A stretch of 64,000 nucleotides of DNA from Betaproteobacteria bacterium Ga0077526. GTDB taxonomy: Bacteria; Pseudomonadota; Gammaproteobacteria; Burkholderiales; Ga0077523. The position numbers and the translations under genes are program-made. Location of the stretch: contig LNDV01000038.1 in the NCBI GenBank assembly GCA_001464765.1, forward strand, positions 128,311 through 192,310. The letters run 5' to 3'. The notes beneath the pieces were generated by a model. That model saw only the letters and a program-made list of their open reading frames with translations. It made no database searches and was not told where the DNA came from. Of the stretch, positions 496 through 41,743 are shown piece after piece (the stretch's first letter is position 1; the number at the start of each line of letters is the position of its first letter).

Positions 496-510
496 CGGTG
501 CGGTCTGCCC

Positions 511-798: not shown

Positions 799-808
799 CG
801 TCGTCTCC

Positions 809-1810: not shown

Positions 1811-1831
1811 GGCGTGCGCTCCTGATGGGAC

Positions 1832-3148: not shown

Positions 3149-3166
3149 CGGCGGTGCCTCGTTCGC

Positions 3167-5129: not shown

Positions 5130-5132
5130 GGC

Positions 5133-5930: not shown

Positions 5931-6013
5931 GGGACCGCCCAGGGAGCCTGCGTCGTTGTCGTCGGGGAGCGCGCCTGAAGGCGCCGCCCGCCCCGCCTCG
6001 ACCGGATTCATTG

Positions 6014-6027
6014 ACCGACCGGTCGAT
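6014..6027. promoter_or_regulatory. PaaR (TetR-family)-type operator overlapping divergent sigma70 promoters
   Basis: ACCGACCGGTCGAT is a 13/14 match to the palindrome ACCGACCGGTCGGT known for PaaR-regulated paa promoters; flanked by TTGACC-N18-TAAAGT (+, 6011-6040) and TTGTCT-N17-TAATGT (-, 6031-6059). Confidence 0.8.
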
Positions 6028-6117
6028 CGAACATTAAAGTAAGCCGATCCCCAAGACAAGGGGCCGCCGCCGGCCATGCCGCCAGGCAGCCCCACCCATC
6101 CCTCCCCGGAGCGAACC

Positions 6118-7779
6118 ATGGCCCATCCCCTCTTCGACAAGCACAAGCCGACTCTCGATGCCGCCCTCGGCGCCCTGCGCACCCGCGGCTTCTGGAGCCC
6201 GTACCTGGAGATTCCGTCGCCCAAGGTCTACGGCGAGACGGCCGCGGCGGACGGCAAGGCGGCCTTCGACGCGTGGCTCGGCAAGCGCTTCGAGCTGGAT
6301 CAGCCCGGGATCACCGGCTGGGCCGCGCCGGAGCGCTCGCCTTTCGGTGTGGAACTGGGCGTGAGTTATCCGGTGTGCGATGCGCAGGCGCTGATCGACG
6401 CGGCCACCGCAACCATGCCCGCCTGGCGCAAGTTGGGCCCGGAGGGTCGGGTCGGCGTGTGCCTGGAAGTCCTTGCGCGAATCAACGCGCGCAGTTTCGA
6501 GATGTCCCACGCCGTGATGCTCACCACCGGCCAGGGCTGGGTGATGGCCTTCCAGGCCGGGGGCCCGCACGCGCAGGACCGCGCACTGGAAGCCGTGACC
6601 ACCGCCTGGCGCGAGATGGCCGAGGTGCCCCCTGAGGCCACGTGGGAGAAGCCCCAGGGCAAGAACCCGCCGCTGGTGATGCGCAAACAGTTCGAGATCG
6701 TCGGACGCGGCGTGGCGCTGGTGATCGGCTGCGGCACCTTCCCCACATGGAACACCTACCCCGGCCTGTTCGCAGCCCTGGCCACGGGCAACCCGGTGAT
6801 CGTGAAGCCGCATCCCAATGCCATCCTGCCCGCGGCCATTTCGGTGAAGATCATCCGCGAGGTGCTGGCCGAAAACGGCATCGACCCGAACGTCGTCACG
6901 CTCGCGGTGAGCGAAGACCCCGCCGTGACCCAGCGGCTGGCCACGCACCCAGCCGTCACGACGATCGACTTCACCGGCAGCAACGCCTTCGGGCAGTGGC
7001 TCATGGACAACGCGCGCCAGGCCACGCTCTACGCCGAGATGGCCGGCGTCAACACCGTGATGATCGAGTCCACCGACAACTACAAGGGCCTGCTGCGCAA
7101 CATGGCCTTCACGCTGTCGCTGTACTCCGGCCAGATGTGCACCACCACGCAGGCGATCCTAGTCCCGGCGGCAGGCATCTCGACCCCCGAAGGACAGGTG
7201 CCCTTCGACCAGGTGGCTGCAGACCTCGGCGCTGCCATCGACAAGTTCCTCTCCGACCCGGCCACTGCGCTGGGCGTGCTGGGCGCGGTGCAGTCGGAAG
7301 CCACGCTGCGGCGGATCGAGTCCGCGCCGTCCCTCGGCAAGGTCGTGCTCGCGTCGCGCGCCCTGGAGAACCCCGAGTTCCCGAAGGCCAACGTCCGCAC
7401 GCCGCTGCTGCTCTCCTGCGATGCCGCCGACGAAGCGGCGTGGATGGAAGAGCGCTTCGGACCGATCTCCTTCGTGGTGAAGGTGGCGGATGCGGCAGCC
7501 GGCGTGAAGCTCGCGGAGCGCGTGGTGCGAGAGAAGGGCGCCATCACCCTCGGGTTGTACTCCACGAACGCCGACGTCGTGGACGACATGACGGAGGCCA
7601 GCCTGCGCGCGGGCGTGGCGCTCTCCCTCAACCTGACCAGCGGCGTGTTCGTGAATCAGTCCGCCGGCTTCTCCGATTACCATGCGACCGGCGCCAACCC
7701 GGCCGCCAACGCGTCCTACACCGATGCGGCGTTCATCGCGAACCGGTTTCGCGTCGTGCAGCGCCGCTGGCACGTGTAG
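6118..7779 (+). CDS. paaN: phenylacetate degradation aldehyde dehydrogenase PaaN
   Basis: [51 protein letters not shown] (catalytic Cys); no fused MaoC domain. Confidence 0.92.
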
Positions 7780-7805
7780 TCGTTCCGGTCTTCCCGAGAG
7801 CCGCC

Positions 7806-8417
7806 ATGCCCTGCTACGAAATCGACGGAGTCCGCCCCGTGGTGCATCCCACGGCCTACGTCCACCCTACCGCCGTGCTCATCGGCGACGTGATCGTGGG
7901 GCCGCGGTGCTACATCGGGCCGCTGGCGAGCCTGCGCGGCGATTTCGGCCGCCTCATCGTGGAGGAAGGCGCCAACGTGCAAGACACCTGCGTGATGCAC
8001 GGCTTTCCGGGGACGGACACCGTGATCGAGGTGGACGGCCACATCGGCCACGGCGCCGTCATCCACGGCGCCCGCATCGGCCGCAATGCCCTGATCGGCA
8101 TGAACGCCGTGGTGATGGACAACGCCGTGGTCGGAGACAACAGTCTGGTGGCGGCATCCGCCTTCGTGAAGGCGGGGATGGTGATTCCCGCACGCAGCCT
8201 GGTGGCGGGTGTGCCCGCGAAGATCATCCGCGAGGTGACCGACGACGAGATCGCATGGAAGGGCGAAGGCACGAAGACCTATCAGGAACTCACCGTGCGC
8301 AGCATGGCGACGATGCATGAGGTGCACCCCGACACCGAGGTCCGGCCCGACCGGCCGAAACTCAACGTGGCCGTGACATTGCCGCTGGTGGAGCGGAAGA
8401 AACTTCAGGGACGATAG
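7806..8417 (+). CDS. paaY: PaaY, gamma-carbonic-anhydrase-like hexapeptide-repeat protein
   Basis: [29 protein letters not shown]...LRGDFG...[13 protein letters not shown]...[11 protein letters not shown]; this is the C-terminal part of track ORF 6642..8417. Confidence 0.92.
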
Positions 8418-8432
8418 TTCCTCTGCCGCGGC

Positions 8433-8514
8433 CCCGGAGTCGGCGCGATTGCGCCTCGTCCGGGCTACGCCACGGTCAGTAGCCCGGACGAGGCGTGACA
8501 ACGCCGACTCCGGG
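8433..8514. repeat. inverted doublet of GTAG-type REP elements (REPIN/BIME-like)
   Basis: Two 36-bp copies: 8479-8514 (+) GTAGCCCGGACGAGGCGTGACAACGCCGACTCCGGG and 8433-8468 (-) GTAGCCCGGACGAGGCGCAATCGCGCCGACTCCGGG, 10-bp spacer; lies between convergent paaY and the RTX gene. Confidence 0.85.
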
Positions 8515-8542
8515 AACTCGGCCGCGCGAACGCGAGTGGCCC

Positions 8543-11500
8543 CTACCCGCCGATCGCCTCGCCGGTCCGCAACCAGTCCATCCCTCGCAACGACTGCGGC
8601 CGCAAGCCCGGTGGCAAGTTCGCGAGGCTGTCCATGACGCCGAGGGTGCCGAGGCTGCCGAATCCGCCGGCGTCCGCCGCGTACGCCGCGGCGAGATCTC
8701 CGCCGAAGAGCGCATGGGCATCGGCCGGTGCAGCTGGCGCCGAAGGAGCGGGAACTGCTCCCGCGTTGGCATCGAGCCACTCCGCCATACGGATCGCCCC
8801 TGCAGGAGAGCCGTCGGGGGCGACGAACTGAACGGTCTCGACATTGCGGCGCGCGATGGCGCCGTACCAATTGCGAAGTGTCATCGCATCGTCGTGGCCG
8901 AACGTCAGGTGAAGATCATTGCCTCGACGCGATGCGACGAGATCGCCTTCGGTGATCCCGCCCCCCAGGGAAAGCACCGCGGTCGCCGTGCCCAGGAACT
9001 CGACGGTGTCCTGCCCGTCGCCACGATTGAAGGCCAGAACATGCCGCCCGGCGACGAGCTGCACGTGATCGTCTCCCTCGCCGCCCGCAATGAAGTCCCC
9101 CTCGGAATTGGCGAACAGCCAGTCGTGGCCGTCGTCTCCCCACAGCAGATTGCGACCGGGGCCTCCGCGCAGACTGTCGTGCCCTCCACCCCCGACGAGG
9201 ATGTCGTTACCCGTCCCGCCGCTGAAGTAGTCCTCTTTGCCGTTGCCTCGCAGCAGATCGTGACCGCCGTCTCCGAACGCGATGAGCGCTGCCATGCCAC
9301 TCCGGACAACGTCGTCGCCGGTATCGGCGCGGATCAGGCGCACGGGAGCACGGACCGTGATCCGATCGTCGCACGGCGTGGCCGTGATCCGCACCGCGGG
9401 CTCCTCGACGACCCACGTGCGCGTCGGCACGAAGAAATCCGTCGCGCTCCGCCGCGCGGCATTGCCGAAGTGGAACTGCTCGATCGGCATGGCACCTTCG
9501 CCTTCCCACAGCACATCGAATCCCTCTTCGGGCCCCGCCATTCCGCCTGCGGGACTCACTCGCACCCGCGCGATGGATTGATTTCCTGCGCGATGGAGAC
9601 GGATGGCGACCTGCTCAGGCGCGATCCCATCGCCGAATCGGATCGTGTCCAAACCAGCGCTATCGAAAATCCGGTCGACGCCACCTCCCCGCTCGAACCG
9701 ATACACGTCATCGCCGCGATAGCCGGTCAACGAATCGTTCCCGCCTGCGCCGAACAAGGTGTCCGGGCCGGTTCTGCCGCGGAGGTCGTCCGTAGCCGAC
9801 GTCCCGAGCAGCGTTCGACCCGGTCCGGCGAGGACGTCGATGCGAAGCACGGCGCCGGCCTCGGCACCGGCGCGATCCGAAGCCACCAGACGGACCAATA
9901 CCTCGGGGTCGTCCTCGGGGCCCGGTCGTCCTGACAGCGTCATCGACCCGGCGTCGAACGACAACCACGCGGGCAAAAGACCGCCAGCAACGCCCTCCGC
10001 CCGGACATTCAGGCGATCGCCGGTGTCGTCATCGCGGAACGCATCGGCGGGCAGAGTCCACTGGAGTGTCTCGCCCTCCACAACTGCGGCGGGCTGCAGC
10101 GATCTGGCGATGGGCGCGCTGTTGGCCAGACGCGTCGAGAGCGACTGAGGCGAGCCGTCGACCGAGAGGGTCGCGACCGCAGCGAGCAGCGCGGCATCGA
10201 CGTCGTACCCCGCAGCTTCGTCCGTCTCGAGCAATACGAGATCACCGCCGTAGGCACGATCGTCCCAGACCGCCGTCAGATGCCGTTGCCAGTCGATGAG
10301 GCCGGACTGGCCAGCGCTGGCCCCTGCGATGACTGCGGACAGATCGTAAACACGAACCTTGTCGGTGATCACCTGGAGCCGCAGCTGGCGCCCGTCCCAC
10401 TGAGACAGGTCCGACAGCCTGAGTCCGCCGCCATCGCCGAAGTCGACAAGCGCACCATCTCCCTCCACGCGAACCCGTACGTTGTCGAGAGACAAGTCTC
10501 TGCCGAGATTCACGGTCAGCGAACTCGCCGGGGCGCTCACCGTATCGACACCGTCTCCCCATCGATGACGAAGAAGCAGATGAGTGCCGGGCGCGTCGAT
10601 CGTGTCGTCTCCCGCACCGCCCTGCATGACGGCGGCCGGTCCCGAGGAGCGGAGCCGGTCCGCGCCGGAACCACCATCGAACCACGCAATGGCCTGCGCG
10701 AAGAGCGCGTCGTCGCCATCGCCTCCGATGAGCACTGCGCCACCGGCTGAGTCAGAGATGGCATCGCTGCCATCCCCGCCGCCGAGCCAGTCGAGTCCCT
10801 CGCCCCCCTCCAGCGTGTCGTCGCCCTCGGCGCCGAACACGCGATCGTCTCCCGCCAGGGCCGAAATCGTGTTGCCGCGACCGCCCTCGCCGATCAGGAG
10901 ATCGTTCCCGTCCGTGGCGGCGCGATAGAGCGCATAGGCGCCGACGTCATCGAGTCGCCATTCGCCACCGTCGTCGAAACCGATCACTTGCACCGGACGC
11001 GCGCCGCCCGCGCCGTACCAGTCCGCGAGCGTCACGCTGGTGCCCGTTGGCTCGTGGGTGATTCGCAGATCGGCCCCGTGCGCGCTGGGGCGCACTTCCC
11101 AGGGCCGGATGGACTCGCCGAAAAGAAGGGAACGTGCGGTGCCATCGGCCTGGACTCGCCGATCGGCCTCTCCCGCCTCCATCACGACCGAAGCGCCCGC
11201 AGCTATCACCTGCCGTCGCAGGTCTGCGATCCGCAAGACCTCTCCGTCGCCGAACTGCACCTGCTCCACGCCGCCGCCCAGGCCGCCGATGAGGCCCCAC
11301 TGGAAATGGGTGCTGTTCGTCGGGTCGGCGGTCTCGATGGGACGCGTCCAGTCCCCCATGTACAGCCGGACGCGCTGGTCGGCGCCCCAGGCGAGATCCA
11401 GCGTCTGCCACAGACGCGGCCGCACATCGAACAGGCTTTCGTCGTTGGTCAGGCGCGCAGCGGACTCTTCCGACAGGCCCAGCTCGGCCGCTGTGGCCGA

Positions 11501-14500
11501 TCCGAACGAGATGCGAACGTCCTCTCGCGTCACGGCTTCAGGCAGGACGACAGTATCCGTGGCGACCAGCCCCGCGGCGGCGAGCAAGGGATCGTCCCGC
11601 GCATAGGGTCGCCGCGGAATCGGCGCGTCCGGAAAGGTCTGCTGATGCCACGACTCGAACAACGCAAACGGCGGCGCTTCCGATGTGGCGAGTTCGAGGC
11701 TCACATCGAGAATGACGTCGCCATCGGCCTCGCCGGCGCGGATGACATAGCGATCGGCCCCCTCGCCGCCATCCAGCCGGTCGGCGCCTTCGCCACCCAC
11801 CAGCATGTCGGCGCCTGACCGACCGACGAGTTCGTCATCCCCTTCACCGCCGACCAATGTGTCGCCGTAGCCGCTGCCTTCGAGTCGGTCGTTGCCGCCC
11901 TGGCCGTCGACGAACACCCCCGGGCTGAACTCGTCGAGGCCGATGAAATTGAAGACGAGGGGCGACTGCCGCACGTCGTCATTCCCGCCACCCGCCAGAA
12001 TGATTGAACGCCCGCGGAACTGGATCTGCTCTGGGGCGTCACCGCCCGAGACCTCCGGGATGAAAGTCGATGTGCGAATGTTGTCGCGGGCCTTCGATGT
12101 GCCATCCACTTCCCGGAGAATCACGTCGCGTTCCCAAGCGATGTCGTGATAGGTCTCGACACCTGCGCCGGACGGAAGCGAAGTCGAGTCCTCGGGAATC
12201 GGCCGCCATCCGGCCAGCAGTGGCTGACCCTTTCGCTCTACGGTCACGTCGATCGAGACCGCACCGGCATCGGTCCAACTGGTGCGGGTCTGCGCGTTTG
12301 AAGTCACCGTGAAGGAAGCACCCTCGGCCATGACACTCTGGAAGTTCAAATCGCGCCAGCGCGCAGACAGCCTGGCGGGCTCCAGCCCCTGCCATGGCAC
12401 GATGTCCTGTGTGGTCGCAGTGACCACCCCGCCGCTCGCATCGATCAGCTGGGACAGCCGTTGCGTTCGAATCTGTGTGCCGAACACGTCGAGAAGCGGA
12501 CTGCGATAGCCCGCGCCGTCGTCGAGCGCCGCCAGCCCCTCTTCCTTTGCCACGCGATCGTGCGCGTGGACCAGGCTCCATCGGAACTCCCGCCGCAAGG
12601 CGGTATCGGGATCGGCAAACTCGCCCTCGGATTGGCTCCGAATCCAGTCTTCCACCGATACCTGGACGCCATCGACATCGATCTGCCAGAGTTCCGGCCT
12701 AGAGGCGAATCCCTTCACCAAAACGCCCTGAGCCGACTCACCGCTCGTCCCGGCGAGCCGCAGTGCGAGATTGGTGCCACGAAGCTCGGGCACCAGACCG
12801 TCGAGCGCCAGAGGCGCGTCCAGCACCAGGACGCCGCCCTCGCCGGGCTCCTCACGGATCTCGTCCCAACCCATGCCGAGCGACAGCACGTAGCGATCCG
12901 CTCCTGCGCCGCCGATGAGAACATCATTGCCGGCACCGCCATCGAGGAGGTCGTCTCCGCGAAGGCCGCGGAGGGTCTCGGAGAACGGACTCCCCTGCAG
13001 CGAATCGTTGCCGTCGGTGCCGTCGATTGGCGCCAGCGGCAGCGATGCAATTCCCGCCGAGTCGAGTTCGCTTCCGTCACCGAAGACGATTCGCTTCAGC
13101 TTGACGCCGTTGGGGTCGAACACGCCCGGCAGGAGAATCCGGTCGTCGCTTCCTGCCACGCGGACCTCCAGATCGCCCGTGGCGAAACGAAGCAGCGTCA
13201 CATCGGACCGGAAAAGGCCGCTTCCCAGCACGAGACTATCGCCCCACTGGGCATTCACGGTGTCGCGGCCATCGCCAGCGTCAAAGAGGTAAGTGTCCTC
13301 ACCGTCCCCACCGTCGAGACGATCATCCCCGCGCCCGCCGACGATGAAATCGTCGCCACCACCGCCTTCGATGCGATCGTCACCGGCGTGACCGTACAGT
13401 CGATCCCGCCCGAAGCCGCCGGAGAGTCGGTCCGCGCCGGCGAACCCTTCCAGAACGTCCTCGCCTGAGGTGCCGGTGAGAATCACGGGGTCGACGAGAG
13501 CTTCTCCGTAGAACTCGGCGGCGGTGAGGGATTCCTCGCCGTCGAAGACGACCACGAAGCTTCCGCCACCCGAGCTGCCAGTGTTGCCCGACGGCGCAGG
13601 GGAACCAACCGAAGGCGGATCGGAAACGAGAGGGATTCCGGCGTCACCGGAGCCTCCGATACCGAGCGGAGGTGGTGGAGCGGAAGGAATCGAGAGGTCC
13701 GGCGCAGGACTCGCTTCGGCCGGTGCACCGACACCCCGGGCGGCAACCTCGAACAGCGCACCGGTCCCGTCGGACACCGTGACGTAGACGACACCGCCGC
13801 GCTGGGAGGACGAAGCCGAAACAGCACCGCGGCCTGTGCCGTTGACGAACCGGATGATGTTCTCGCCTTCGTCGTCGACGATGACGTCCTCGTCGTCCAC
13901 CAGATAGACGTCGTCGCCAGCGCCGCCACGCAGAACGTCCCGGCCTTTGCCTCCTTCCAGGAAATCGTTGCCGGCACCGCCGTTCAGGACATCGTCGCCG
14001 TCGCCTCCGACCAGAGTGTCGTCACCATCGCCACCACGAAGCTGATCCTTGCCGCTGCCCCCGGAGAGCGAATCTCGACCGCCACCACCGTCGAGAACAT
14101 CGTCGCCGGCACCGCCCACCAGAACATCCGCTCCGTGCAACGCAGCGGCGACGTGCTCGCCGTCCCCGATAAGAATGTCGTTGCCGTCCCCGCCCGTCAG
14201 ATGGTCGTCGCCGCCCTCGCCCTGCAGCCAGTCATTGCCCGCGCCGCCTTCGATGACGTCATCGCCGTAAGCGACGACGTGGGCCTCGCCCACGACCGCC
14301 CGACCGCTGTCGCCGGTGATGACATCGTCGCCTTCGTCGCCGAGAAGGTGGTCATCGCCGTCGTTGCCGGCGATCGTGTCGATGCCATCGCCTCCGAAGA
14401 CGATGTCGTTGCCGCCGTAACCGAACACGAGGTCGTTGCCACCGCCGGCGAAGATGACGTCGTTGCCAGCCTCCCGGGCGTACACTGCTGTGGCGTTCGC

Positions 14501-17500
14501 GTGCTGGAACGCTTCGACCCCGTCCACCACGAATTCGAACCTGCCCAAGGCCGCAACGCGCCAGGTCCACGGACTCGGGTTCGATCTGTCGGCCAGATCG
14601 CGTCGCTCATCCCGGCCGACGAAGTCCGCGTCTCCGACGATAAGGTCGTTGCCCGTTCCACCCACCAGCTTGTCGGCACCGAGGCCGCCCGAGAGCAGGT
14701 CGTTGCCCTCCTCGCCGAACAGCCAGTCGTCGCCCTTGCCGCCCACGAGCCAGTCGCCTTCCCCCACACCGAAGCCTCCCGCAGCGCCCCGCTGGACGGC
14801 TGCATCGAGTTCAGTCCGGAAGTTTGCATACAGTCGGTCATCGCCATCGCCACCGGTCAGGACATCGCGTCCGGCGTCGCCGATCACGGTGTCGTTGTCC
14901 GCTCCGCCGTCGAGATAGTCGTCGCCGCTACCGCCGTCGATGAAATCGTCCCCGCCCCACTTCTCGGAAACGTAGTCCGAGCCAAGGAACGTACTGATCT
15001 CGGAAGGGCCCGGCGCGCCGACGAACTCGTCCGCGCGCGAAGGCTCCGGGGTCGTCGTCAGGACAGGGTTGCCCCACTCGTCCACCACCACCTGATCGGC
15101 AAGAACCGGCTTGAGGTCCCCCACGAAGGCCCGATCGAGACCTCGCGTCTCGCCTTTCTGGACGAGGTGAATGCCGTAGTCGCCATTGCGATAGCCGCGA
15201 ATGACGAGGCTGTCTGTCCCGCCGAAGGCAATCGCGAGGTCAGCGCCGATCAGCGTCGCGGAGATGCTGGCGTCTGCCTTCCAGCGATATGACGTGTCGG
15301 ACTTCTCGAACACGCCGGCCAGGTTGCGCCCGTTCTCCAGTCGGATGGTGCCCTTGTCCGTGTCGACTTCGATCGTGTCCGCCCCGAAGCCGACAATGTA
15401 CGTATCGAATCCTTCGCCGCCCGAGAGAACGTCGTCGCCCTTGCCACCGCGAAGCTCGTCCTGCTCGTCCCCACCTTCGAGCCGGTCGTTGTCCCACCCG
15501 CCATCGAGATTGTCCGCCCCGGCCTCGCCGAACAGCCTGTCGTCGCCGCGACCACCAAGCAGCGTGTCATTGCCCGACCCGCCGTGGAGTTCATCGTCCC
15601 CGTCGTTGCCTTCGAGGTGGTCGCGCAGCGCCTCGCCCTTCAGAACATCGTTGCCACCGCGACCGTAAAGACGATCCTCGCTGGGGCCGCCATTGAGCGT
15701 CTCGACCTCCTTGTTCTCGTCCAGTCCGAAGCGAACCAAGAACTTCGGACTTCCGCCTCTCTGGTCCTGGTCTGCGGACCCGTAGTCGATACGGATGTTC
15801 CGAAACAGGTCCTCGAGCACACCCGGCACCGCGCTGCGGATGAAGGGCTTCTGCTCGTTGTAGAGATTGCGTTCCAGCGTCCTGGACAAGAGAGTCGCGC
15901 GGTCCTTCACGTACTGCACGGAGTAGTGCTCTGCCGCGTACTTCTGGGAGTCGTAGATCCGCACATCCGCCGACACGACGAACGGCGCAAGATTGTCCAG
16001 CGCGACCCGGTTCGCCTCGGCAAGGGGTGAGTCTCCCGCCGCTCGGAGTACTAGCTGGGCAGACGTCGGGAACGTGCCCCTGACGTACGACACCGTCTTG
16101 TTGCTGAACGCTGCGGTAATGCCGCTTTCGCCCGTCCAGCGCATCTCGGCGATCGGCGTGATCGTGTAGCGTCGGGACCCGACCGTCTTGAGGTAGTCGG
16201 TGATCTCCGTGATCCGGTCGTAGAAGACGTTGCGGAAGTCGAGGTTGCCGAAGCCGTCTAGTCCAGGATCGAAGTCGGTCAGGCGCTTTCCCAGGACCGC
16301 CGCTGGCGGAAGGATCGCCCACCGCAGGGCATCGAGCGCGAGTTCCAGAGAATCACTTTCCGCGCGCGCTTCTGCCACCGCTAAGGAGCTGTCTGAAATC
16401 TGATTCGACGATGACGCGAAAACCGTGTCGACATTCTCCTGGGTGAGCGTGGCATCGATGGTCTGAAACAGCCGGGTCAGGGCCAGCGAGTCCATGAGGA
16501 GCGTGATGCTGTGGGATCGGAGGAAGTCACGCTCGAACTTGTCCTGTTCCGTCGGAGCGGGAGAGAGGTAGTTCCCACCGAAGAACGGCTGATCCTCAAT
16601 GAAGACTCGGACGCGGCCGGCCGTAGGGAGAATGCCGGAGAGCGACACGAAGGTATCGTCATGGTGAGTTGCCATCCCATAGACGTAGGTGATCTTCGAG
16701 TCGATCGCAGGGTCCAGAGTCACCGCGCCGAAGTCCCCACCGAGGAAAGTTGTGAACTCGCCGACGCGGGCCATGGCCCATCGATGCCGGGGGTCGACGT
16801 AGGCATCGTGCTCCCAGAGGGGATCGGGACTCCTCTCCGCGTTACGGGCCGCGCTGAGGAGAGCATCGAACTCGGCATTTCTTCCGCGCACGAACGGCAA
16901 CCCCGGTAGGTCCGCTTCCGGGTTGGCGACGATAGCGTTGTACGCGTCCAGCAACTGCCGGATGGAGAACCACGGCGCAACCCCGCCACGCCCGGGACTG
17001 TTGATCATGGTAGCGTGGCTCACCCGATCCGGATGCAGTTCCGTCATGACCATGGCGATGTGGCCGCCCAACGAGTAGCCGGACAGCTCTATGCGCCCGG
17101 CTCCAAACAGCGCGCCGCCCGGTGCGATCTGCTCTGTGAACCACCGGTCCGCCGCGGCGAGCTGCGCCCACGCCATTCCGCGAAACGCCAGACTCTTGTC
17201 GGCACCGTCCTTGTCCCGAGCACTGTCTCCGCCGAAGCGCTGTTCCACGAACTCGGTGCTTCGGAATGCCACGGTGTAGTGGCTGGGATCCTGACGCGAG
17301 CGAAGGATGGTCGCGGAGAAGCCGCTGGCGTCGTTCAGCGTTTGGGTGACTATCTCGAAACCGTTCGATTCCGCCAACTCACGGTTCATTGACTCCGTAA
17401 ACCGAGTGGCGCCAGGCAGTATTGGCCTGTCTGGGCGCGCACCTGGGAGCATCTGGAGAAGCTCGTTGTCTTGCAAACGACCGTTCACGCGAACTTGTGG

Positions 17501-17635
17501 CTCGAGATTGTTGCTTCCTGCTCGCAAGGCACTCGGGATGTCCGATGTGCGTTCCCCGGAGAGGAGCGTGATATACGACTCGGCCGCAAACTGCTTGAGC
17601 AATGCCGCGTACAAGACCTGCGTTCGGGTACTCAT
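8543..17635 (-). CDS. giant RTX (Ca-binding GGxGxDxUx repeat) protein, ~3030 aa, with N-terminal alpha/beta-hydrolase (lipase) domain and a cadherin/Ig-like domain; probable T1SS substrate
   Basis: Dozens of GGxGxD nonapeptides in several blocks; SGFSAT...TVAFRSTE...LSGYSLGGHIA...NSPG...SHSI lipase pattern (GYSLGG at 17063-17080); NSAPI...LPADAFRDDD...LPAWLSFD...LSGRP Ig-like unit (~9835-10125); no signal peptide; ATG 17635 overlaps the upstream TGA (ATGA). Confidence 0.9.
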   Translation of the reverse strand: MSTRTQVLYAALLKQFAAESYITLLSGERTSDIPSALRAGSNNLEPQVRVNGRLQDNELLQMLPGARPDRPILPGATRFTESMNRELAESNGFEIVTQTLNDASGFSATILRSRQDPSHYTVAFRSTEFVEQRFGGDSARDKDGADKSLAFRGMAWAQLAAADRWFTEQIAPGGALFGAGRIELSGYSLGGHIAMVMTELHPDRVSHATMINSPGRGGVAPWFSIRQLLDAYNAIVANPEADLPGLPFVRGRNAEFDALLSAARNAERSPDPLWEHDAYVDPRHRWAMARVGEFTTFLGGDFGAVTLDPAIDSKITYVYGMATHHDDTFVSLSGILPTAGRVRVFIEDQPFFGGNYLSPAPTEQDKFERDFLRSHSITLLMDSLALTRLFQTIDATLTQENVDTVFASSSNQISDSSLAVAEARAESDSLELALDALRWAILPPAAVLGKRLTDFDPGLDGFGNLDFRNVFYDRITEITDYLKTVGSRRYTITPIAEMRWTGESGITAAFSNKTVSYVRGTFPTSAQLVLRAAGDSPLAEANRVALDNLAPFVVSADVRIYDSQKYAAEHYSVQYVKDRATLLSRTLERNLYNEQKPFIRSAVPGVLEDLFRNIRIDYGSADQDQRGGSPKFLVRFGLDENKEVETLNGGPSEDRLYGRGGNDVLKGEALRDHLEGNDGDDELHGGSGNDTLLGGRGDDRLFGEAGADNLDGGWDNDRLEGGDEQDELRGGKGDDVLSGGEGFDTYIVGFGADTIEVDTDKGTIRLENGRNLAGVFEKSDTSYRWKADASISATLIGADLAIAFGGTDSLVIRGYRNGDYGIHLVQKGETRGLDRAFVGDLKPVLADQVVVDEWGNPVLTTTPEPSRADEFVGAPGPSEISTFLGSDYVSEKWGGDDFIDGGSGDDYLDGGADNDTVIGDAGRDVLTGGDGDDRLYANFRTELDAAVQRGAAGGFGVGEGDWLVGGKGDDWLFGEEGNDLLSGGLGADKLVGGTGNDLIVGDADFVGRDERRDLADRSNPSPWTWRVAALGRFEFVVDGVEAFQHANATAVYAREAGNDVIFAGGGNDLVFGYGGNDIVFGGDGIDTIAGNDGDDHLLGDEGDDVITGDSGRAVVGEAHVVAYGDDVIEGGAGNDWLQGEGGDDHLTGGDGNDILIGDGEHVAAALHGADVLVGGAGDDVLDGGGGRDSLSGGSGKDQLRGGDGDDTLVGGDGDDVLNGGAGNDFLEGGKGRDVLRGGAGDDVYLVDDEDVIVDDEGENIIRFVNGTGRGAVSASSSQRGGVVYVTVSDGTGALFEVAARGVGAPAEASPAPDLSIPSAPPPPLGIGGSGDAGIPLVSDPPSVGSPAPSGNTGSSGGGSFVVVFDGEESLTAAEFYGEALVDPVILTGTSGEDVLEGFAGADRLSGGFGRDRLYGHAGDDRIEGGGGDDFIVGGRGDDRLDGGDGEDTYLFDAGDGRDTVNAQWGDSLVLGSGLFRSDVTLLRFATGDLEVRVAGSDDRILLPGVFDPNGVKLKRIVFGDGSELDSAGIASLPLAPIDGTDGNDSLQGSPFSETLRGLRGDDLLDGGAGNDVLIGGAGADRYVLSLGMGWDEIREEPGEGGVLVLDAPLALDGLVPELRGTNLALRLAGTSGESAQGVLVKGFASRPELWQIDVDGVQVSVEDWIRSQSEGEFADPDTALRREFRWSLVHAHDRVAKEEGLAALDDGAGYRSPLLDVFGTQIRTQRLSQLIDASGGVVTATTQDIVPWQGLEPARLSARWRDLNFQSVMAEGASFTVTSNAQTRTSWTDAGAVSIDVTVERKGQPLLAGWRPIPEDSTSLPSGAGVETYHDIAWERDVILREVDGTSKARDNIRTSTFIPEVSGGDAPEQIQFRGRSIILAGGGNDDVRQSPLVFNFIGLDEFSPGVFVDGQGGNDRLEGSGYGDTLVGGEGDDELVGRSGADMLVGGEGADRLDGGEGADRYVIRAGEADGDVILDVSLELATSEAPPFALFESWHQQTFPDAPIPRRPYARDDPLLAAAGLVATDTVVLPEAVTREDVRISFGSATAAELGLSEESAARLTNDESLFDVRPRLWQTLDLAWGADQRVRLYMGDWTRPIETADPTNSTHFQWGLIGGLGGGVEQVQFGDGEVLRIADLRRQVIAAGASVVMEAGEADRRVQADGTARSLLFGESIRPWEVRPSAHGADLRITHEPTGTSVTLADWYGAGGARPVQVIGFDDGGEWRLDDVGAYALYRAATDGNDLLIGEGGRGNTISALAGDDRVFGAEGDDTLEGGEGLDWLGGGDGSDAISDSAGGAVLIGGDGDDALFAQAIAWFDGGSGADRLRSSGPAAVMQGGAGDDTIDAPGTHLLLRHRWGDGVDTVSAPASSLTVNLGRDLSLDNVRVRVEGDGALVDFGDGGGLRLSDLSQWDGRQLRLQVITDKVRVYDLSAVIAGASAGQSGLIDWQRHLTAVWDDRAYGGDLVLLETDEAAGYDVDAALLAAVATLSVDGSPQSLSTRLANSAPIARSLQPAAVVEGETLQWTLPADAFRDDDTGDRLNVRAEGVAGGLLPAWLSFDAGSMTLSGRPGPEDDPEVLVRLVASDRAGAEAGAVLRIDVLAGPGRTLLGTSATDDLRGRTGPDTLFGAGGNDSLTGYRGDDVYRFERGGGVDRIFDSAGLDTIRFGDGIAPEQVAIRLHRAGNQSIARVRVSPAGGMAGPEEGFDVLWEGEGAMPIEQFHFGNAARRSATDFFVPTRTWVVEEPAVRITATPCDDRITVRAPVRLIRADTGDDVVRSGMAALIAFGDGGHDLLRGNGKEDYFSGGTGNDILVGGGGHDSLRGGPGRNLLWGDDGHDWLFANSEGDFIAGGEGDDHVQLVAGRHVLAFNRGDGQDTVEFLGTATAVLSLGGGITEGDLVASRRGNDLHLTFGHDDAMTLRNWYGAIARRNVETVQFVAPDGSPAGAIRMAEWLDANAGAVPAPSAPAAPADAHALFGGDLAAAYAADAGGFGSLGTLGVMDSLANLPPGLRPQSLRGMDWLRTGEAIGG

Positions 17636-18699
17636 TCGCTGTAGGCCTTCCCTGACGGCTTCGCAACCTTGGTGAGAAACCACAGCCCGAAGTCATGGTG
17701 CTTGTTTCTGCGCAGGATCTTTCCTGGACCCTCCACCGACATGTAGTCTGGGCAGACATTTCCTCCGCCCCAACTGACACCTCCATCGGGTAGTTGACCT
17801 CCCAGGATGAACCCCCTGCGCAGACCAAGTAATTGGTTGGTTTTGAGGTCCACCACCGCGAGTTCTCCACCCGCAATGCCAAGTTCTCGATCCATCGGGC
17901 GCCGGATGCCTCGCCACGTGAAGCCGATGGTGCTGACGATCGATTCGACCCACACCATTCTCATCGTGTCGAATCGCCGCTGATCGAAGCCGTAATAGCG
18001 CTGGAATCGGCGTCCTGGGGACGGTTTCTCGCGAAGCGATCCGTCGCCGTTGAACGCCGGACGCGCGACGCCGGGATGCCACCCGCTCTCCAGATACGAG
18101 TAGCCAGGGAGTTCTCTGGTCCAGCGGTCCTTCGGCGCGAGGTAAGTGAACGCGATGTAGGCCTCCTCCTCACCCAGCGTGTTGCCGTAGGGGTCCTCCA
18201 CAATGTACCGATCCGCCATCGCGTAGTCCGTCTCGTGTTTGCGCGGGCGCACTTGGTAGACCCCCTCCACCTCCACCGTCCGGTAGATGAACTCCCCCGC
18301 CTCCGCCTTGCACAGCGCCCTCCAGTACTCGACTGGCGTCATCCCCTCCCGGTAGACACTCTCCTTCGGCGCCTCCGGCCACTTCAGCGGCGGAACATCC
18401 CGGTACGGCCAGATCTCCGGGTTCTCGTTTCGGCGGAGCAGGAATCTCTGGCAGCGGCCGTCCCCACGCTCGCGGTTTCGACATTTCTCGTGCTCAGCCT
18501 CGTCATACATCTGCCCATACGTCTCCCCCAACGGATGTGGCTTGACCGGCCTACGTTTCTCTTCGATGAAGGCACCACAGCCAGCGAGAACAACGCAGAG
18601 ACCCGAGACGGCAAGAGCCTGCAGCAACCGCGCAGTGGTCAACGCCAGGCGATGCGGGCCTCGCGAGAAGGAACATGGCGGGAGGGAATGGCGGGGCAT
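17632..18699 (-). CDS. hypothetical lipoprotein, partner of the RTX-lipase (candidate immunity or anchor protein)
   Basis: Hydrophobic stretch plus lipobox VLAG/C (Cys codon 18577-18579); TTG 18642 is an alternative start giving a canonical-length signal peptide; four further Cys; stop overlaps the RTX start. Confidence 0.8.
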   Translation of the reverse strand: MPRHSLPPCSFSRGPHRLALTTARLLQALAVSGLCVVLAGCGAFIEEKRRPVKPHPLGETYGQMYDEAEHEKCRNRERGDGRCQRFLLRRNENPEIWPYRDVPPLKWPEAPKESVYREGMTPVEYWRALCKAEAGEFIYRTVEVEGVYQVRPRKHETDYAMADRYIVEDPYGNTLGEEEAYIAFTYLAPKDRWTRELPGYSYLESGWHPGVARPAFNGDGSLREKPSPGRRFQRYYGFDQRRFDTMRMVWVESIVSTIGFTWRGIRRPMDRELGIAGGELAVVDLKTNQLLGLRRGFILGGQLPDGGVSWGGGNVCPDYMSVEGPGKILRRNKHHDFGLWFLTKVAKPSGKAYSE

Positions 18700-18741
18700 C
18701 GAAGGTCCTTGGTTTCGGGAGACCGGCGGAAAGGGGCGCCC

Positions 18742-18758
18742 TGCAAGTATCCTGCCGA
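18742..18758 (-). promoter_or_regulatory. sigma54 (-24/-12) promoter for the lipoprotein-RTX operon
   Basis: Minus strand TCGGCAGGATACTTGCA has exact GG-N10-GC spacing and TTGCA; ~45 bp upstream of ATG 18699. Confidence 0.65.
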
Positions 18759-19185
18759 TCCGGGCACGGATCGAGGCCGGAGAAACCCCCGCGCGAACCC
18801 GGATCGCGATTCGGCACGATGCCCTTCAACCACCGAGGCGGGTGGCGACTTGCGCTACTGTGAACGGAGGGCGTTTCCCCGGTGCGCCCAGGGGGCATGC
18901 GGCACCAGTCGCGTAGCGTCAGAGGCGCCGACAGCGATGAGCATGGTGCGCGACCCGACCGAACTGCGCACTCGTCGGTTCGGCACTCATCGGGGCAAGC
19001 CCCCAGAGCCGAACCCGCGGCCGGATGCCCTCCCTGTGTCGGCGCGGGAATCGATCATGCTCCAGCAGCCCCAGGTCACGCCACGCGGCTTGACCACCAT
19101 TCGAAACTGCGGGCGAGCGGGTGCGTAAGACGCGAAGCACCCGACCGGATGGACACCCGAGAAGACAGATTCGCGGCACGACAGG

Positions 19186-19202
19186 TGTCGGCCTTCTTGA
19201 CA
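19186..19202 (+). promoter_or_regulatory. enhancer-binding-protein site (TGT-N11-ACA), PrsR-like
   Basis: TGTCGGCCTTCTTGACA, 17 bp, ~53 bp upstream of a sigma54 element in front of a PEP-CTERM gene; a related copy TGTCGGCGCCTCTGACG lies on the minus strand at 18917-18933. Confidence 0.55.
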
Positions 19203-19253
19203 TTCCAGTACGGACATCGGGCGCGGACGCTTTCCCGTCAATGAGTTCCGTCC

Positions 19254-19270
19254 CTGGTCCCGCGATTGCT
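19254..19270 (+). promoter_or_regulatory. sigma54 (-24/-12) promoter of the PEP-CTERM gene
   Basis: CTGGTCCCGCGATTGCT has GG-N10-GC with TTGCT; 44 bp before ATG 19314. Confidence 0.7.
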
Positions 19271-19313
19271 GTCTCTCGGAGATTCCGACTCTTCCGGACA
19301 GAGGCCCCAACCG

Positions 19314-20132
19314 ATGAGACCGACCAGAACCCTCCTGACGCTCGCCCTCCTGTCCTTCGCCGCGTCCGCCCAGGCGGCAGATCCCGTCCCCGTCGCGACC
19401 TGGAGCTTCAACAACACGCTCGCCGCGGACGAAGCCGGCGTCCCGGCCCTCACCCCGATCGATCCGCTGGGCAGCAACGGGTTCCTGCTGGACGATGTGT
19501 TCGGAGAGTCGCGCTGGGTATACCGGTTCGACGGCAACGCTTCCGACGTGACGGAGCAGGCCGGACTCGTCGTTTCCGCCGCAGGGCTGCTGGACAACGA
19601 CGATGCCTATTCGGTCGACATCGTGTTCCAGTTCGAAGCGAATGAGGCTTCGTGGGAGAACATCTTAGGGGTCTCCAATCGCCAGAGCGACAACGCCTTC
19701 TATGTGTCGCCCGGCAATCAGCTCCAGGTCTGGCCGACTTCGACCGGGCCGTCTTTCTTCACGTTCGGCGAATACCACCGCATCACGCTCACCAACCGGG
19801 GCAACGGCACGGTGACTGCCTATCTGGATGGCATCCTCCAGTTCGACCTCGACACCCAGTCGATGGATTTCAGCGCCTATGCCGCGGACAACCCGGAGCG
19901 ACTGATCCATTTCTTCGCTGACAACGTCGCCGGTGGCGGTCAGTTCGAGTTCGCGGATGGGCGCGTCGCGCTGATTCGGCTCTATGACATCGAACTCACC
20001 GAGACGGAAGTCGGCGGTATCGATGTGCCACCGCCCCCGGTGCCGGAGCCCGGCACAATGGCACTGATGGGGGTCGGAGCCCTCGGGATTGCTGCGATGG
20101 TGCGGCGTCGCCGGGGAGCCACGTCGCACTGA
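19314..20132 (+). CDS. PEP-CTERM sorting-domain protein with LamG/concanavalin-like domain
   Basis: Sec signal (..AASAQA), YHRITLT...TAYLDG...VALIRLYDIELT LamG-like pattern, C-terminal VPEPGTMALMGVGALGIAAMVRRRR. Confidence 0.92.
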   Translation: MRPTRTLLTLALLSFAASAQAADPVPVATWSFNNTLAADEAGVPALTPIDPLGSNGFLLDDVFGESRWVYRFDGNASDVTEQAGLVVSAAGLLDNDDAYSVDIVFQFEANEASWENILGVSNRQSDNAFYVSPGNQLQVWPTSTGPSFFTFGEYHRITLTNRGNGTVTAYLDGILQFDLDTQSMDFSAYAADNPERLIHFFADNVAGGGQFEFADGRVALIRLYDIELTETEVGGIDVPPPPVPEPGTMALMGVGALGIAAMVRRRRGATSH

Positions 20133-20153
20133 GTCGGACTCGGTTCACGACCG

Positions 20154-20185
20154 AAACGGGGCGCCTTGGCGCCCCGTTTTCTTTT
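20154..20185 (+). terminator. rho-independent terminator
   Basis: AAACGGGGCGCC-TT-GGCGCCCCGTTT followed by TCTTTT; between convergent genes. Confidence 0.85.
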
Positions 20186-20210
20186 GCGGCCCCCGCGACC
20201 CGTAGCTGCG

Positions 20211-20654
20211 CTACTTCACCTCGATGGTGGCGCGCATACCGGCCTCCGTGTGCGTTCGTGTGGACATCACGTCGTCGAATCGACCAGTTCGGATCGGGAT
20301 AAACCACCATTCCGCGACTCCACCGGGTTTGAGTTCCATGCGACGTACGGGCCCGTACACCTCGGCAATCGGCGCCCCGTCCGGACCCACTACCATGACC
20401 TTCCGCGAGTACACCGCGTCAGCCAGACCCTGTGAACCGAAGTAATAGGCGTTGCGACTTGCGTTCTCCAGGCGCAATGCGTATAGCTTTCCGGTCTCGA
20501 AGCTGAGCGAGTCCGGCGAGAAGCGGTGCTCACCCTGCGCGTTTCCCAGCGTGAGGGTCACGACGATCGGCTCCTGCTTCGTGAGGTCACCGGCGGCCTG
20601 GACACTGGCGGGTCCGGATGCAGCGAGGGCAATGGCTAGCAAAAGCGGTTTCAC
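20211..20654 (-). CDS. exported cupredoxin-like protein with degenerate copper site
   Basis: GTG 20654 behind GGAG; signal peptide; [21 protein letters not shown]...[10 protein letters not shown]...[13 protein letters not shown] cupredoxin-like pattern; C-terminal part of track ORF 20211..21374. Confidence 0.75.
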
Positions 20655-20897
20655 GGGAAAGTCTCCGGGGTGAGGGATCGACTCGCATGCTCGTGGGATT
20701 CTCGCGGCGACCAGTTTCCAGACCGCCGCATGCTTTCGGAGTTCCCGATCGTGCGTCCCGGCGCACGTTTCGCCACGGCGCCATTTGCGATAATCGGCCC
20801 CCTCGTCCCGGAATTCCCGGGCGCCCCGCCGATCCATGCTTCGGTCCGCGGGCACGCACGGCCGGGCCCCATTTTCCCCACCTTGGAAACCACGACC

Positions 20898-21707
20898 ATG
20901 GCAGCAGACGTCATCGACTATCAGATCTTCGGCGAAGAGATGCAGTACGTGGAGATCGAGCTGGACCCCGGCGAGGCCGCGATCGGCGAGGCCGGTGGCA
21001 TGTTCTACATGCAGGACGGCATCTCGCTGGACACCGTCTTCGGCGACGGCACCCAGCAGGGCGGCATCTTCGGCAAGCTGATGGGCGCCGGCAAGCGGCT
21101 GCTCACGGGCGAGTCGCTGTTCATGACCATCTATTCCAACACCGGTAACGGCAAGCGACGTCTGGCGTTTGCGGCGCCCTACCCCGGCACCATCATCCCC
21201 ATCAACCTCGCCAAGATGGGCGGTCAGTTCATCTGCCAGAAGGATGCCTTCCTGTGCGCGGCGCGCGGCGTGTCCGTGGGCATCGCGTTCCAGAAGAAGC
21301 TGGGCGTCGGCTTCTTTGGCGGCGAGGGCTTCATCATGCAGAAGCTGGAAGGCGACGGCCTCGCATTCGTCCATGCTGGCGGCGCGCTCATGAAGAAGGA
21401 ACTCGCCCCCGGCGAACTGCTGCGCGTGGACACCGGCTGTCTCGTGGGCCTGCAGCCCTCGGTGGACTACGACATCGAGTACGTGGGCAAGATCAAGACG
21501 GCGCTGTTCGGCGGCGAGGGGATGTTCTTCGCCACGCTCCGCGGCCCGGGCACGATCTGGCTGCAGTCGCTTCCGCTCTCGCGGCTTGCCAGCCGCATCT
21601 TCGCGGCGGCGCCCCAGATGGGCGGCTCCCGTGAGCAGGGCTCCATCCTGGGCGGCATGCTCGGCGGCGCGGCCCTCGGGGGCCTGCTCGGCGGCGACGA
21701 CGAGTGA
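20898..21707 (+). CDS. TIGR00266 / AIM24 family protein
   Basis: [48 protein letters not shown]. Confidence 0.9.
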
Positions 21708-41702: not shown

Positions 41703-41743
41703 GCTTGACCACCTCGTTCGAAGGTCCGGACAATCCCGGATCC

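Follow-up and report, generated by a model that had tools for sequence, protein, structure and literature searches.

The window analysed here, 64,000 nucleotides of a contig of Betaproteobacteria bacterium Ga0077526, carries on its minus strand a gene for a predicted lipoprotein (P0001) immediately upstream of one for a giant RTX protein (P0002). The features of the pair are as follows:

17632-18699, minus strand: lipoprotein gene P0001, 355 aa (open reading frame and translation)
17632-18699, minus strand: putative role of P0001 as periplasmic inhibitor or immunity partner
18577-18588, minus strand: lipobox L38-A39-G40-C41 with Gly at +2 (read from the translation)
17632-17635, minus strand: ATGA overlap of lipoprotein stop codon and RTX start codon, indicating translational coupling (from the sequence)
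8543-17635, minus strand: RTX gene P0002, 3030 aa (translation; stop codon 8543-8545)
16466-17635, minus strand: class-3-lipase-like alpha/beta-hydrolase domain, residues 1 to about 390 (predicted model)
17072-17074, minus strand: codon of Ser188, the nucleophile in GYSLGG (conservation and model position)
16658-16660, minus strand: codon of Asp326, candidate triad acid, with Glu347 as the alternative (conservation and model)
16511-16513, minus strand: codon of His375, candidate catalytic base (conservation and model)
15851-16465, minus strand: conserved helical/beta module behind the lipase, residues about 391-595 (conservation and mostly high pLDDT)
9056-15718, minus strand: RTX beta-roll blocks with intervening non-repeat segments, residues about 640-2860 (Pfam and motif positions)
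9845-10114, minus strand: He_PIG Ig-like domain, residues 2508-2597 (Pfam E 2.7e-8, 34.6 bits, above the cut-off)
10949-11071, minus strand: HCBP_related domain, residues 2189-2229 (Pfam E 6.5e-14)
8546-8905, minus strand: C-terminal 120 residues, presumed uncleaved T1SS secretion signal (from position only)

An earlier note made from the letters alone had described most of this, and its statements on the sequence hold: the lipobox with Gly at +2 is in the translation (L-A-G-C, with Cys41), the TGA and ATG overlap as it said (ATGA, 17632-17635), the RTX protein, put at about 3030 aa, has 3030 codons counted from the ATG, and the GYSLGG elbow (17063-17080), the AFRSTE segment and the downstream HS motif fall at residues 186-191, 123-128 and 375-376, respectively. 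We take the ATG at 17635 as the start of the RTX gene, rather than an upstream GTG at 17683, because lipase-head homologues begin at residues 1-13 of the ATG reading. Neither promoter nor terminator was found in a scan of 8300-19400. The note's statements on what the window lacks also stand, in that no T1SS, T6SS or acyltransferase family was found among the 60 window ORFs scanned (those of at least 200 aa), and no VgrG, PAAR or Hcp gene that would link the pair to a T6SS; nor does P0002 have a hydrophobic segment of the pore-forming HlyA/CyaA type (maximum 19-residue Kyte-Doolittle mean, 1.61).

That P0002 is an RTX protein is plain from its 39 GGxGxD-type motifs in about 10 blocks, from the match to HemolysinCabind (PF00353) in 25 stretches (Pfam E 3.5e-114), and from its acidic, cysteine-poor composition (491 acidic and 247 basic residues, with a single Cys). 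Matches of the whole protein to PDB sequences are confined to these blocks (CyaA, serralysins and family I.3 lipases). There is no N-terminal signal peptide, the N-terminus being, in the predicted model, a helix of the lipase domain. The signals recognised by type I secretion systems (T1SS) are C-terminal; the last 120 residues of P0002 matched no family model in Pfam or NCBIfam. By sequence, P0002 shows no Asp-Pro self-processing module.

The lipase head is recognised by fold more readily than by family. P0002 has no Lipase_3 match at the Pfam cut-off and only a sub-threshold one to Abhydrolase_1 (22.5 bits, against a cut-off of 25.8), and a PDB sequence search with the head gave weak matches only (6i8w at 0.0025, 1ex9 at 0.041). 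The predicted model of the head (pLDDT 82, pTM 0.85), compared by VIA-align, reaches Z 11-14.5 solely with class-3 lipases, feruloyl esterase A, a family I.3 lipase, the T6SS effector Tle6 and plant PLA1, the best matches being 6xok (Z 14.5, 203 residues aligned, rmsd 3.3), 4tgl (13.8) and 1uza (13.7), while all other hydrolases score 6.2 or less. On the model, then, the head belongs to the fungal lipase/PLA1 group, and residues 1 to about 390 are predicted to form a class-3 (fungal/plant PLA1-type) lipase fold. The GxSxG elbow and a Ser-Asp/Glu-His triad occur in the canonical order, both in the sequence and relative to the strands of the model: Ser188 follows strand 181-187, Asp326 lies in the loop behind strand 315-321, and His375 is between strand 341-345 and helix 377-393. 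None of the three varies among the 27 paired sequences. In wider sets Ser188 is 99% conserved (129 sequences) and His375 again invariant, and for the acid Asp326 is conserved at 86% and Glu347 at 100%. Short matches to the head are mostly truncated metagenome fragments. In the module behind the lipase, E426, L430, E431, R468 and R579 are conserved together with the head. As feruloyl esterases also have the class-3 fold, P0002 might act on something other than a membrane lipid.

What kind of protein is the partner? At least 499 homologues of P0001 exist, none of them with a Pfam family, and P0001 itself matches no Pfam or NCBIfam family at E ≤ 0.01 (neither Lipase_chap nor ankyrin). Among 35 sequences of the family, extending down to 39% identity, 35 columns are invariant, including many charged residues (Glu, Asp and Arg) and four cysteines (C73, C83, C130 and C316). 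The model of P0001 (pLDDT 85, pTM 0.81) is of mixed alpha/beta type. It found no match in the PDB by Foldseek at E ≤ 0.001, and no chain at Z ≥ 5 among 48,161 compared by VIA-align, the best match being PelC at Z 4.5; small envelope lipoproteins such as PelC, TraT and LptE are weakly similar to it (Z 4.5 or less). FrpD (5EDF), Smlt3025 (6PDK) and protease inhibitors are not among the best 50 VIA-align matches listed, and a search of PDB sequences with a profile of the family gave nothing at E ≤ 10. The window protein is absent from the ESM Atlas, where its homologue P0067 led to unnamed clusters only. Close homologues keep the lipobox at the same place, and more widely, by a crude pattern on which these counts rest, at least 56 of 112 homologues have one (with Asp at +2 in nine of the 56), the others having a plain signal peptide.

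The two genes travel together. In 34 of 46 informative loci in other genomes, the lipoprotein homologue is followed within 350 nt by a lipase-head homologue; in three more there is one within 3 kb, and in nine there is none. In a class-level sample of 400 genomes, only five bear the lipoprotein, and all five have a lipase head on the same contig; in four the two are neighbours, while in the fifth, G094, they are about 1.1 kb apart and the lipoprotein match spans 48 residues only. In congeneric genomes holding both genes these are adjacent in 10 of 10 cases, as two co-segregating sequence types; the module occurs in only about half of the genus, and one congener has it at a different chromosomal site, which indicates mobility. 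The pairing is thus far beyond chance, and the earlier note's proposal, which would have fallen had homologues of the two genes not co-occurred, survives this comparison. A single longer protein was found in which a lipase fragment is joined to a protein of the lipoprotein family. Partner and lipase head co-diverge (r = 0.70), and the partner has the higher identity in 75% of 300 pairs.

The neighbourhood survey that the note had suggested, with its question about tandem paralogues, revealed tandem lipoprotein genes at six loci (L009, L012, L017, L035, L043 and L064). Orphan lipoprotein genes also occur, and four of the five genomes that bear them have no lipase head at E ≤ 1e-5. These orphans could be relics of decayed loci: the lipase gene at L037 is broken by five internal stops, and lipase remnants are present at L035 and L045. 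Tandem and orphan partner genes make for an asymmetry typical of toxin/immunity pairs. A gene order comparable to that of the pair is seen with more distant lipase-RTX genes whose elbow reads GHSLGG, which are preceded by a gene for a small protein in nine of nine cases examined. This protein (about 190 aa, at least 415 database clusters) has a hydrophobic, apparently membrane-spanning N-terminus and two invariant cysteines, and it is possibly a remote homologue of the 355-aa lipoprotein.

How might P0002 be exported? The genome itself has an ABC and HlyD gene pair on another contig (C35) with no substrate gene nearby. At four other loci (L005, L009, L034 and L052) an ABC gene 55-60% identical to the C35 gene adjoins the pair on its upstream side, and at L016 genes for an ABC protein with a C39 domain, an HlyD and an OEP are directly upstream. 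Export of the giant RTX protein probably uses the C35 ABC/HlyD pair. A search of the genome for the HlyC family gave no match, either for HlyC or for the controls.

We suggest that the pair comprises a phospholipase on an RTX stalk, exported by a T1SS, and its cognate periplasmic inhibitor or immunity protein, a reading to which we give somewhat better than an even chance. The giant protein would be a type I secretion substrate, with a long, acidic, calcium-binding RTX stalk carrying at its N-terminus an active lipase or phospholipase of class-3 type. From the coupled upstream gene would come an exported, disulfide-bonded protein at the periplasmic side of the envelope, which would bind and neutralise the lipase head and so shield the producer's own membranes, and likewise those of kin, or of cells keeping only the partner gene. 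Binding of partner to head, inhibition, a lipid substrate and the target (a rival bacterium or some other membrane) are all things that we infer. This reading is favoured by the fold shared with an antibacterial effector, the conserved triad, the strict pairing, the tandem and orphan partners, and the combination of export with variable anchoring. Against it, we know of no route by which the N-terminal head of a T1SS-secreted giant could enter the periplasm of another cell, and type I secretion has no periplasmic intermediate in the producer. Nor is the partner fast-evolving, and it has many invariant charged residues, as might equally well be said of an enzyme or a structural partner. An immunity protein might have been expected to evolve faster than its toxin, an expectation that was disappointed: mean identity is 0.43 in the aligned core of the partner and slightly lower, at 0.39, in the lipase head.

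That conservation, and the co-divergence with the head, would also be expected of a maturation factor, folding helper or activator of the lipase, comparable to the lipase-specific foldases or to Tli for Tle6, and such a protein might inhibit as well. Translational coupling would suit it too. It is nevertheless unlikely: in the textbook account T1SS substrates exit unfolded, C-terminus first, with no periplasmic stage, yet this partner is exported; the partner matched neither Lipase_chap nor an ankyrin family; and orphan copies exist with no lipase to mature. A precedent for it is a lipase of the same fold group that, in the available part of its description, requires its immunity protein for activation (PMC11470151).

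The earlier note had left two possibilities side by side, toxin with immunity protein and anchor with cargo, and the comparative evidence favours the first. In the second, the lipoprotein would serve as an anchor or retention partner, the part proposed for FrpD towards FrpC, gripping the RTX protein by its N-terminus, keeping enzyme and stalk on the surface of the producer and protecting nothing. The gene order is that of frpD-frpC, the pairing is strict, Gly at +2 is compatible with outer-membrane sorting, and FrpD is described, in the portion of the report available, as binding the N-terminal domain of the RTX protein FrpC with a Kd of about 0.2 nM (PMC5233953). However, at least half of the relatives have no recognisable lipobox, and the possibly related sister proteins begin with apparently membrane-spanning segments; neither kind of protein would be able to keep a cargo attached at the cell surface. 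With Asp at +2 in some of the lipoboxes, no similarity to any solved lipoprotein in the profile search of PDB sequences, and orphan and tandem copies that would have no role in lipase-free genomes, we think an anchor improbable. Least probable is that the partner has an enzymatic or envelope function of its own (acting, for example, on the lipase product or on the envelope) and shares no more than its regulation with the RTX protein, as its invariant acidic, arginine and cysteine columns and faint likeness to PelC, TraT and LptE might suggest, since no family or fold match points to any chemistry, and fusions or other fixed contexts of the gene are all but absent, its position and coupling being fixed relative to the lipase gene.

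If the pair is indeed one of phospholipase toxin and immunity protein, a wider proposal can be put forward, tentatively and with a good deal more reserve: that lipase-headed giant RTX proteins are widespread, unrecognised T1SS toxins, interbacterial or otherwise membrane-attacking, with a dedicated periplasm-facing immunity superfamily of new fold (the 355-aa lipoproteins and, probably, the membrane-anchored family of about 190 aa). They would form a T1SS-built polymorphic system in Nitrospira, Burkholderiales, Rhodocyclales, Desulfuromonadales and others, in which free-standing immunity genes defend non-producers. Interbacterial toxins that are enzymes and come with an immunity protein are not accepted as cargo of type I secretion, and the module offers a concrete and tractable case, with predictable head chemistry, one mutable serine and clear export signals on the partner. 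Hundreds of environmental lineages have the pair, among them nitrifiers that matter in water treatment; the module may partly explain the giant RTX genes of such bacteria, and a role would fall to two large "hypothetical" exported families (at least 499 and at least 415 database clusters). Should the partner turn out to be an anchor or an activator, T1SS substrates would nonetheless have gained a new accessory component.

No description of a lipoprotein/lipase-RTX pair was found in the literature searched. Among known systems, family I.3 lipases (PML of Pseudomonas sp. MIS38, LipA of Serratia) resemble P0002 in having an N-terminal GxSLGG lipase followed by RTX repeats, and are T1SS-exported. 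The head aligns with the I.3 lipase 3a6z over 259 residues (Z 12.1); similarity at the level of sequence is seen for the RTX blocks but not for the catalytic domain. To our knowledge the I.3 lipases, at about 615 residues, have no partner gene, and the protein here is five times as long. Serralysin-type T1SS proteases are co-encoded with a small periplasmic inhibitor of the N-terminal catalytic domain, which protects the producer (AprA/AprI, Inh, SmaPI). The logic is the one proposed here, whereas enzyme class and inhibitor family differ, and we know of no orphan or tandem genes as a feature of serralysin inhibitors. Lipase-specific foldases (Lif) are set apart by Lipase_chap, which P0001 does not match. 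Tle/Tli pairs likewise combine a Ser-acid-His triad with an adjoining gene for an exported partner, and Tle6 of Enterobacter cloacae (9CYS, PMC11470151) falls with the head in one lipase fold group (200 residues aligned at Z 12.1); but Tle toxins ride on a VgrG/PAAR-type carrier, while the putative toxin here is the N-terminus of an RTX protein, and the immunity proteins of Tle6 are, in the part of that paper available, ankyrin-repeat proteins, unlike the partner here, which is of mixed alpha/beta type and has no ankyrin match.

The closest parallels in gene order are Smlt3024/Smlt3025 of Stenotrophomonas maltophilia and FrpC/FrpD, in both of which, as far as the accessible text goes, an upstream lipoprotein gene is followed by one for a protein with an N-terminal head of the type found in large RTX proteins, just as the lipoprotein gene here lies directly upstream of the RTX-head gene. 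In the periplasm Smlt3024 acts as a toxin, which Smlt3025 neutralises, and the authors of that work proposed FrpC/FrpD as a T1SS effector/immunity pair (PMC6759196, available portion), the sole statement of the idea that we found in the literature. The FrpD fold comprises N-terminal hairpins, an eight-stranded sheet and a C-terminal helix; P0001, whose model reaches Z 5 with no solved chain, might or might not share it. Smlt3024, in the same portion of that paper, is delivered by a T4SS, whereas the RTX protein here is a presumed T1SS substrate; and the heads of Smlt3024 and FrpC have no known function, whereas the head of P0002 is recognisably a lipase.

The module consists of two genes read from the minus strand:

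17632-18699, minus strand: lipoprotein ORF of 355 residues, whose long signal sequence closes in a lipobox, LAG|C (Cys41; +2 residue Gly)
17632-17635, minus strand: ATGA in the sequence, in which the lipoprotein TGA overlaps the RTX ATG
ending at 8543, minus strand: RTX ORF, 3030 codons from the ATGA start
15851-16465, minus strand: helical/beta module after the lipase (RTX residues ~391-595), well modelled and conserved with the lipase

ORF analysis and translation bear out the lipobox protein and overlapping start reported in the earlier note, and the motifs named there in the RTX protein are all in place (GYSLGG at residues 186-191, 17063-17080; AFRSTE at 123-128; HS at 375-376). In the RTX protein, Pfam recognizes 25 RTX stretches (E 3.5e-114) and a single copy each of the HCBP_related and He_PIG domains, together with a sub-threshold alpha/beta-hydrolase match; the lipoprotein has no Pfam match. 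The RTX protein is strongly acidic (491 acidic versus 247 basic residues) and contains only one Cys; as had been supposed, it has no hydrophobic pore-type segment, and neither T1SS, T6SS nor acyltransferase families were present among the 60 long ORFs scanned in the window, again as anticipated. Phenylacetate-catabolism genes end convergently at 8417, and a gene for a PEP-CTERM protein begins at 19266, in divergent orientation to the lipoprotein gene; these flanking genes being unrelated, the pair can be treated as a two-gene unit. The phenylacetate cluster (1-8417) comprises genes for PaaA/C-like proteins, a PaaK-like ligase, 3-hydroxyacyl-CoA dehydrogenase, enoyl-CoA hydratase, aldehyde dehydrogenase and a hexapeptide transferase; on the other side, AIM24-family and M48 peptidase genes come after the PEP-CTERM gene (19266-22789), and polyhydroxyalkanoate (PHA) genes (PhaC synthase, a short-chain reductase and the PhaR regulator) lie at 41705-45567. 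The G+C content is 0.62-0.65 over the lipase head, lipoprotein gene and upstream spacer (16001-20000), compared with 0.66-0.70 in the flanks, a drop that would fit a module that had been acquired.

When 1.84 billion representatives were searched with RTX residues 1-650, 704 relatives emerged, of which 97 were at E <= 1e-30; almost all are located at the extreme N-terminus of host proteins of up to ~4,800 residues. Ser188 is conserved in 99%, and His375, Glu347 and Asn212 in 100%, of a 129-sequence alignment of lipase heads, and Ser188, Asp326, His375 and Asp382 are invariant in the 27 heads from paired loci. In the AlphaFold model (pLDDT 82, pTM 0.85), the conserved residues follow strands 181-187, 315-321 and 341-345, so that residues and strands are predicted to occur in the canonical alpha/beta hydrolase order. 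The model gave Z scores of 11 to 14.5 for the class-3 lipase group only, other hydrolases all being at Z <= 6.2. Within this group are Thermomyces and Rhizomucor lipases, feruloyl esterase A, plant PLA1, the T1SS family I.3 lipase PML (Z 12.1, 259 residues) and an Enterobacter cloacae T6SS phospholipase effector whose structure was solved together with that of its immunity protein (9CYS, Z 12.1). The latter effector, 'Tle6', is described in PMC11470151 as fungal-lipase/PLA1-like; its triad is Ser-Glu-His, and its immunity protein is of the ankyrin-repeat type. The helical/beta module that follows the lipase is hardly covered by structural matches; it might serve to bind the partner or a membrane. 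Because the class-3 match is so sharp and the catalytic residues are conserved in canonical order, the head is very probably an active lipase or phospholipase. It falls below the Pfam Lipase_3 threshold and is therefore left outside that sequence family.

The partner family has at least 499 homologues at E <= 0.001, all unnamed and without a Pfam domain, in Burkholderiales, Rhodocyclaceae, Nitrospira, Gammaproteobacteria and others. Across 35 sequences (identity down to 39%), 35 columns are invariant, including four Cys (73, 83, 130 and 316) and many Arg, Asp and Glu residues. The confident model (pLDDT 85, pTM 0.81) combines alpha and beta elements, among them a long antiparallel sheet, and Foldseek found nothing for it among solved structures at E <= 0.001; the best VIA-align match, to small envelope lipoproteins, has a Z of 4.5, inside the tool's stated noise range. 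Of 112 homologues, at least 56 have a lipobox, the +2 residue being Gly, Ala, Asp, Ser or another; many of the remainder have an ordinary signal peptide or hydrophobic anchor, and some are truncated.

To survey pairing, one genome per species was taken, giving 53 loci with a lipoprotein homologue, of which 46 were informative (seven had less than 1 kb of downstream sequence and were set aside). The co-occurrence of homologues on which the earlier proposal depended was found: a lipase-head homologue starts no more than 350 nt downstream in 34 of the 46, and no more than 3 kb downstream, behind an extra ORF, in three. Nine had no downstream lipase head detectable by tblastn, though in one of these (L051) a giant RTX protein whose lipase head is of another kind, with GQSLGG, is encoded 1.4 kb away. 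Complete downstream genes mostly encode RTX proteins of 2,200-3,100 residues, and a few are short or broken (five internal stops in locus L037; remnants in L035 and L045). ORFs that we take to resemble REP-associated/IS200-type transposases (N-terminus MPR(R/K)PR...H(I/V)(V/I)QRG) sit in or beside degenerate or sister modules (L045:10997-11737 and L075:2538-3239).

In an even, class-level sample of 400 scored genomes, the lipoprotein family occurred in five, always with a lipase head on the same contig and in four cases adjacent to it; in the fifth (G094), the head is ~1.1 kb from a lipoprotein match only 48 residues long. That match is in a 944-codon frame (L065, G094:C12, 9655-12489, minus strand) upstream of a 2300-residue lipase-RTX gene whose start it overlaps. 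Pfam assigns the frame to no family; it may encode a divergent or fused partner, or else be spurious, an effect of high G+C. A further 14 genomes gave weaker, partial lipase-head matches only, without the lipoprotein. Within the window's genus, the lipoprotein family is present in 12 of 24 other species, and the genes are adjacent in all ten congeners holding both (three contig-end lipase heads were uninformative, and three lipoprotein matches were fragments or stop-bearing). Two sequence types can be told apart among these pairs, partner and lipase of the same type always going together (4/4 and 6/6), and in one congener the module is beside rhamnose-biosynthesis genes, a site differing from that in the window. 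Over 300 locus pairs, partner and lipase identities co-vary (r = 0.70).

The tandem paralogues about which the earlier note had asked do occur: lipoprotein genes are in tandem in L012, L017, L035 and L043, the intervening ORF of L009 is a divergent lipoprotein paralogue (hhalign 99.6%), and in L064, from a complete genome, a lipoprotein gene is followed by one for a 419-residue lipase without RTX and then by two more lipoprotein genes. Four of five tested genomes with a lipoprotein gene lacking an adjacent lipase (genome completeness not given) had no lipase head genome-wide at E <= 1e-5, and one of the four is a cultured Undibacterium isolate with two intact tandem lipoprotein copies. A 747-aa metagenomic protein (P0273), encoded in a single frame, joins a truncated lipase head (GYSLGG present, His region absent) and a hydrophobic segment to a complete lipoprotein-family domain, and resembles a displaced toxin fragment that runs on into the next partner gene. 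In these sequences, then, the lipase appears always to be accompanied by the partner, and the partner to be at times alone or multiplied, which is the pattern expected of toxin/immunity pairs and unexpected for an anchor or a foldase. It is accordingly unlikely that the partner is a maturation or activation factor of the lipase. Of the two alternatives offered in the earlier note, the comparative evidence favours toxin and immunity; the other, a surface anchor, is improbable, since anchoring in the family is variable and often non-lipid and orphan partner copies occur. Least probable is a partner with an independent function.

Nine genomes (L068-L076) with distant lipase-head matches only proved to contain a sister system. 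All have a giant RTX gene with a GHSLGG lipase head, directly preceded (often with overlapping stop and start) by a gene for a 184-260-residue protein. The N-terminus of this protein is hydrophobic, and two of its Cys are invariant. In two of the nine, T1SS ABC and HlyD genes are upstream, and L069 has two sister modules in tandem. The small family has at least 415 homologues, all unnamed and typically of ~190 residues. Profile comparison with the lipoprotein family gave two separate, collinear local matches, at an LCxxEAGxxxYxTV motif (probability 62%) and an ELxVVDxxTGExLG...W...CP region (46%), within which both invariant Cys of the small family fall. A remote homology of the two families is probable but unproven. 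Homologous or not, lipase-headed RTX proteins as a class appear to have an upstream, envelope-located partner.

In L016 (Nitrospiraceae), genes for an ABC transporter carrying a C39-like domain, an HlyD adaptor and an outer-membrane factor come immediately before the pair, and an ABC gene is just upstream of the pair in four other loci. Since these four are 55-60% identical to an ABC gene of the window's genome (contig C35, 76557-78878), which adjoins an HlyD gene and has no substrate gene nearby, we infer that the C35 pair may export the RTX protein. The same genome has many more giant RTX-type open frames of 4,000-12,700 codons (e.g. C34:970013-995506, C18:73229-111265, C31:306963-337142, C28:74074-100182 and C29:157754-181357), and several T1SS-type ABC genes are near some of these frames (e.g. 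C34:1012471 beside C34:1008365-1012171).

We lean, with moderate confidence, towards the partner as a candidate inhibitor or immunity protein of the lipase head. The RTX protein would be exported by a T1SS, its head would act as an interfacial lipase or phospholipase, and the co-translated partner would be a periplasm-facing inhibitor shielding the cells that carry it. This reading is weakened by the partner's conservation, which is unusually high for an immunity protein, and we know of no route that takes the head of a secreted giant protein into another cell's periplasm; the fold group of the head also holds non-lipid esterases, which weakens the case for membrane lipids as substrate. No description of the pair or of either partner family was found in the literature searched.

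Self-protection has a T1SS precedent in the serralysin proteases and their periplasmic inhibitors (AprI, Inh). In Tle/Tli systems (PMC11470151), phospholipase effectors that act in the periplasm come with immunity proteins located there, as is proposed here. In the Smlt3024/Smlt3025 pair of PMC6759196, the effector has homology to RTX N-terminal domains, its toxicity is confined to the periplasm, and a lipoprotein encoded upstream neutralizes it; on that basis the authors proposed FrpC/FrpD as a T1SS effector/immunity pair. An enzyme paired with a cognate inhibitor is already a known concept, and a T1SS version had been hypothesized; what is new is a giant RTX stalk bearing a lipase head, together with the partner family (or families) described here and the comparative evidence.
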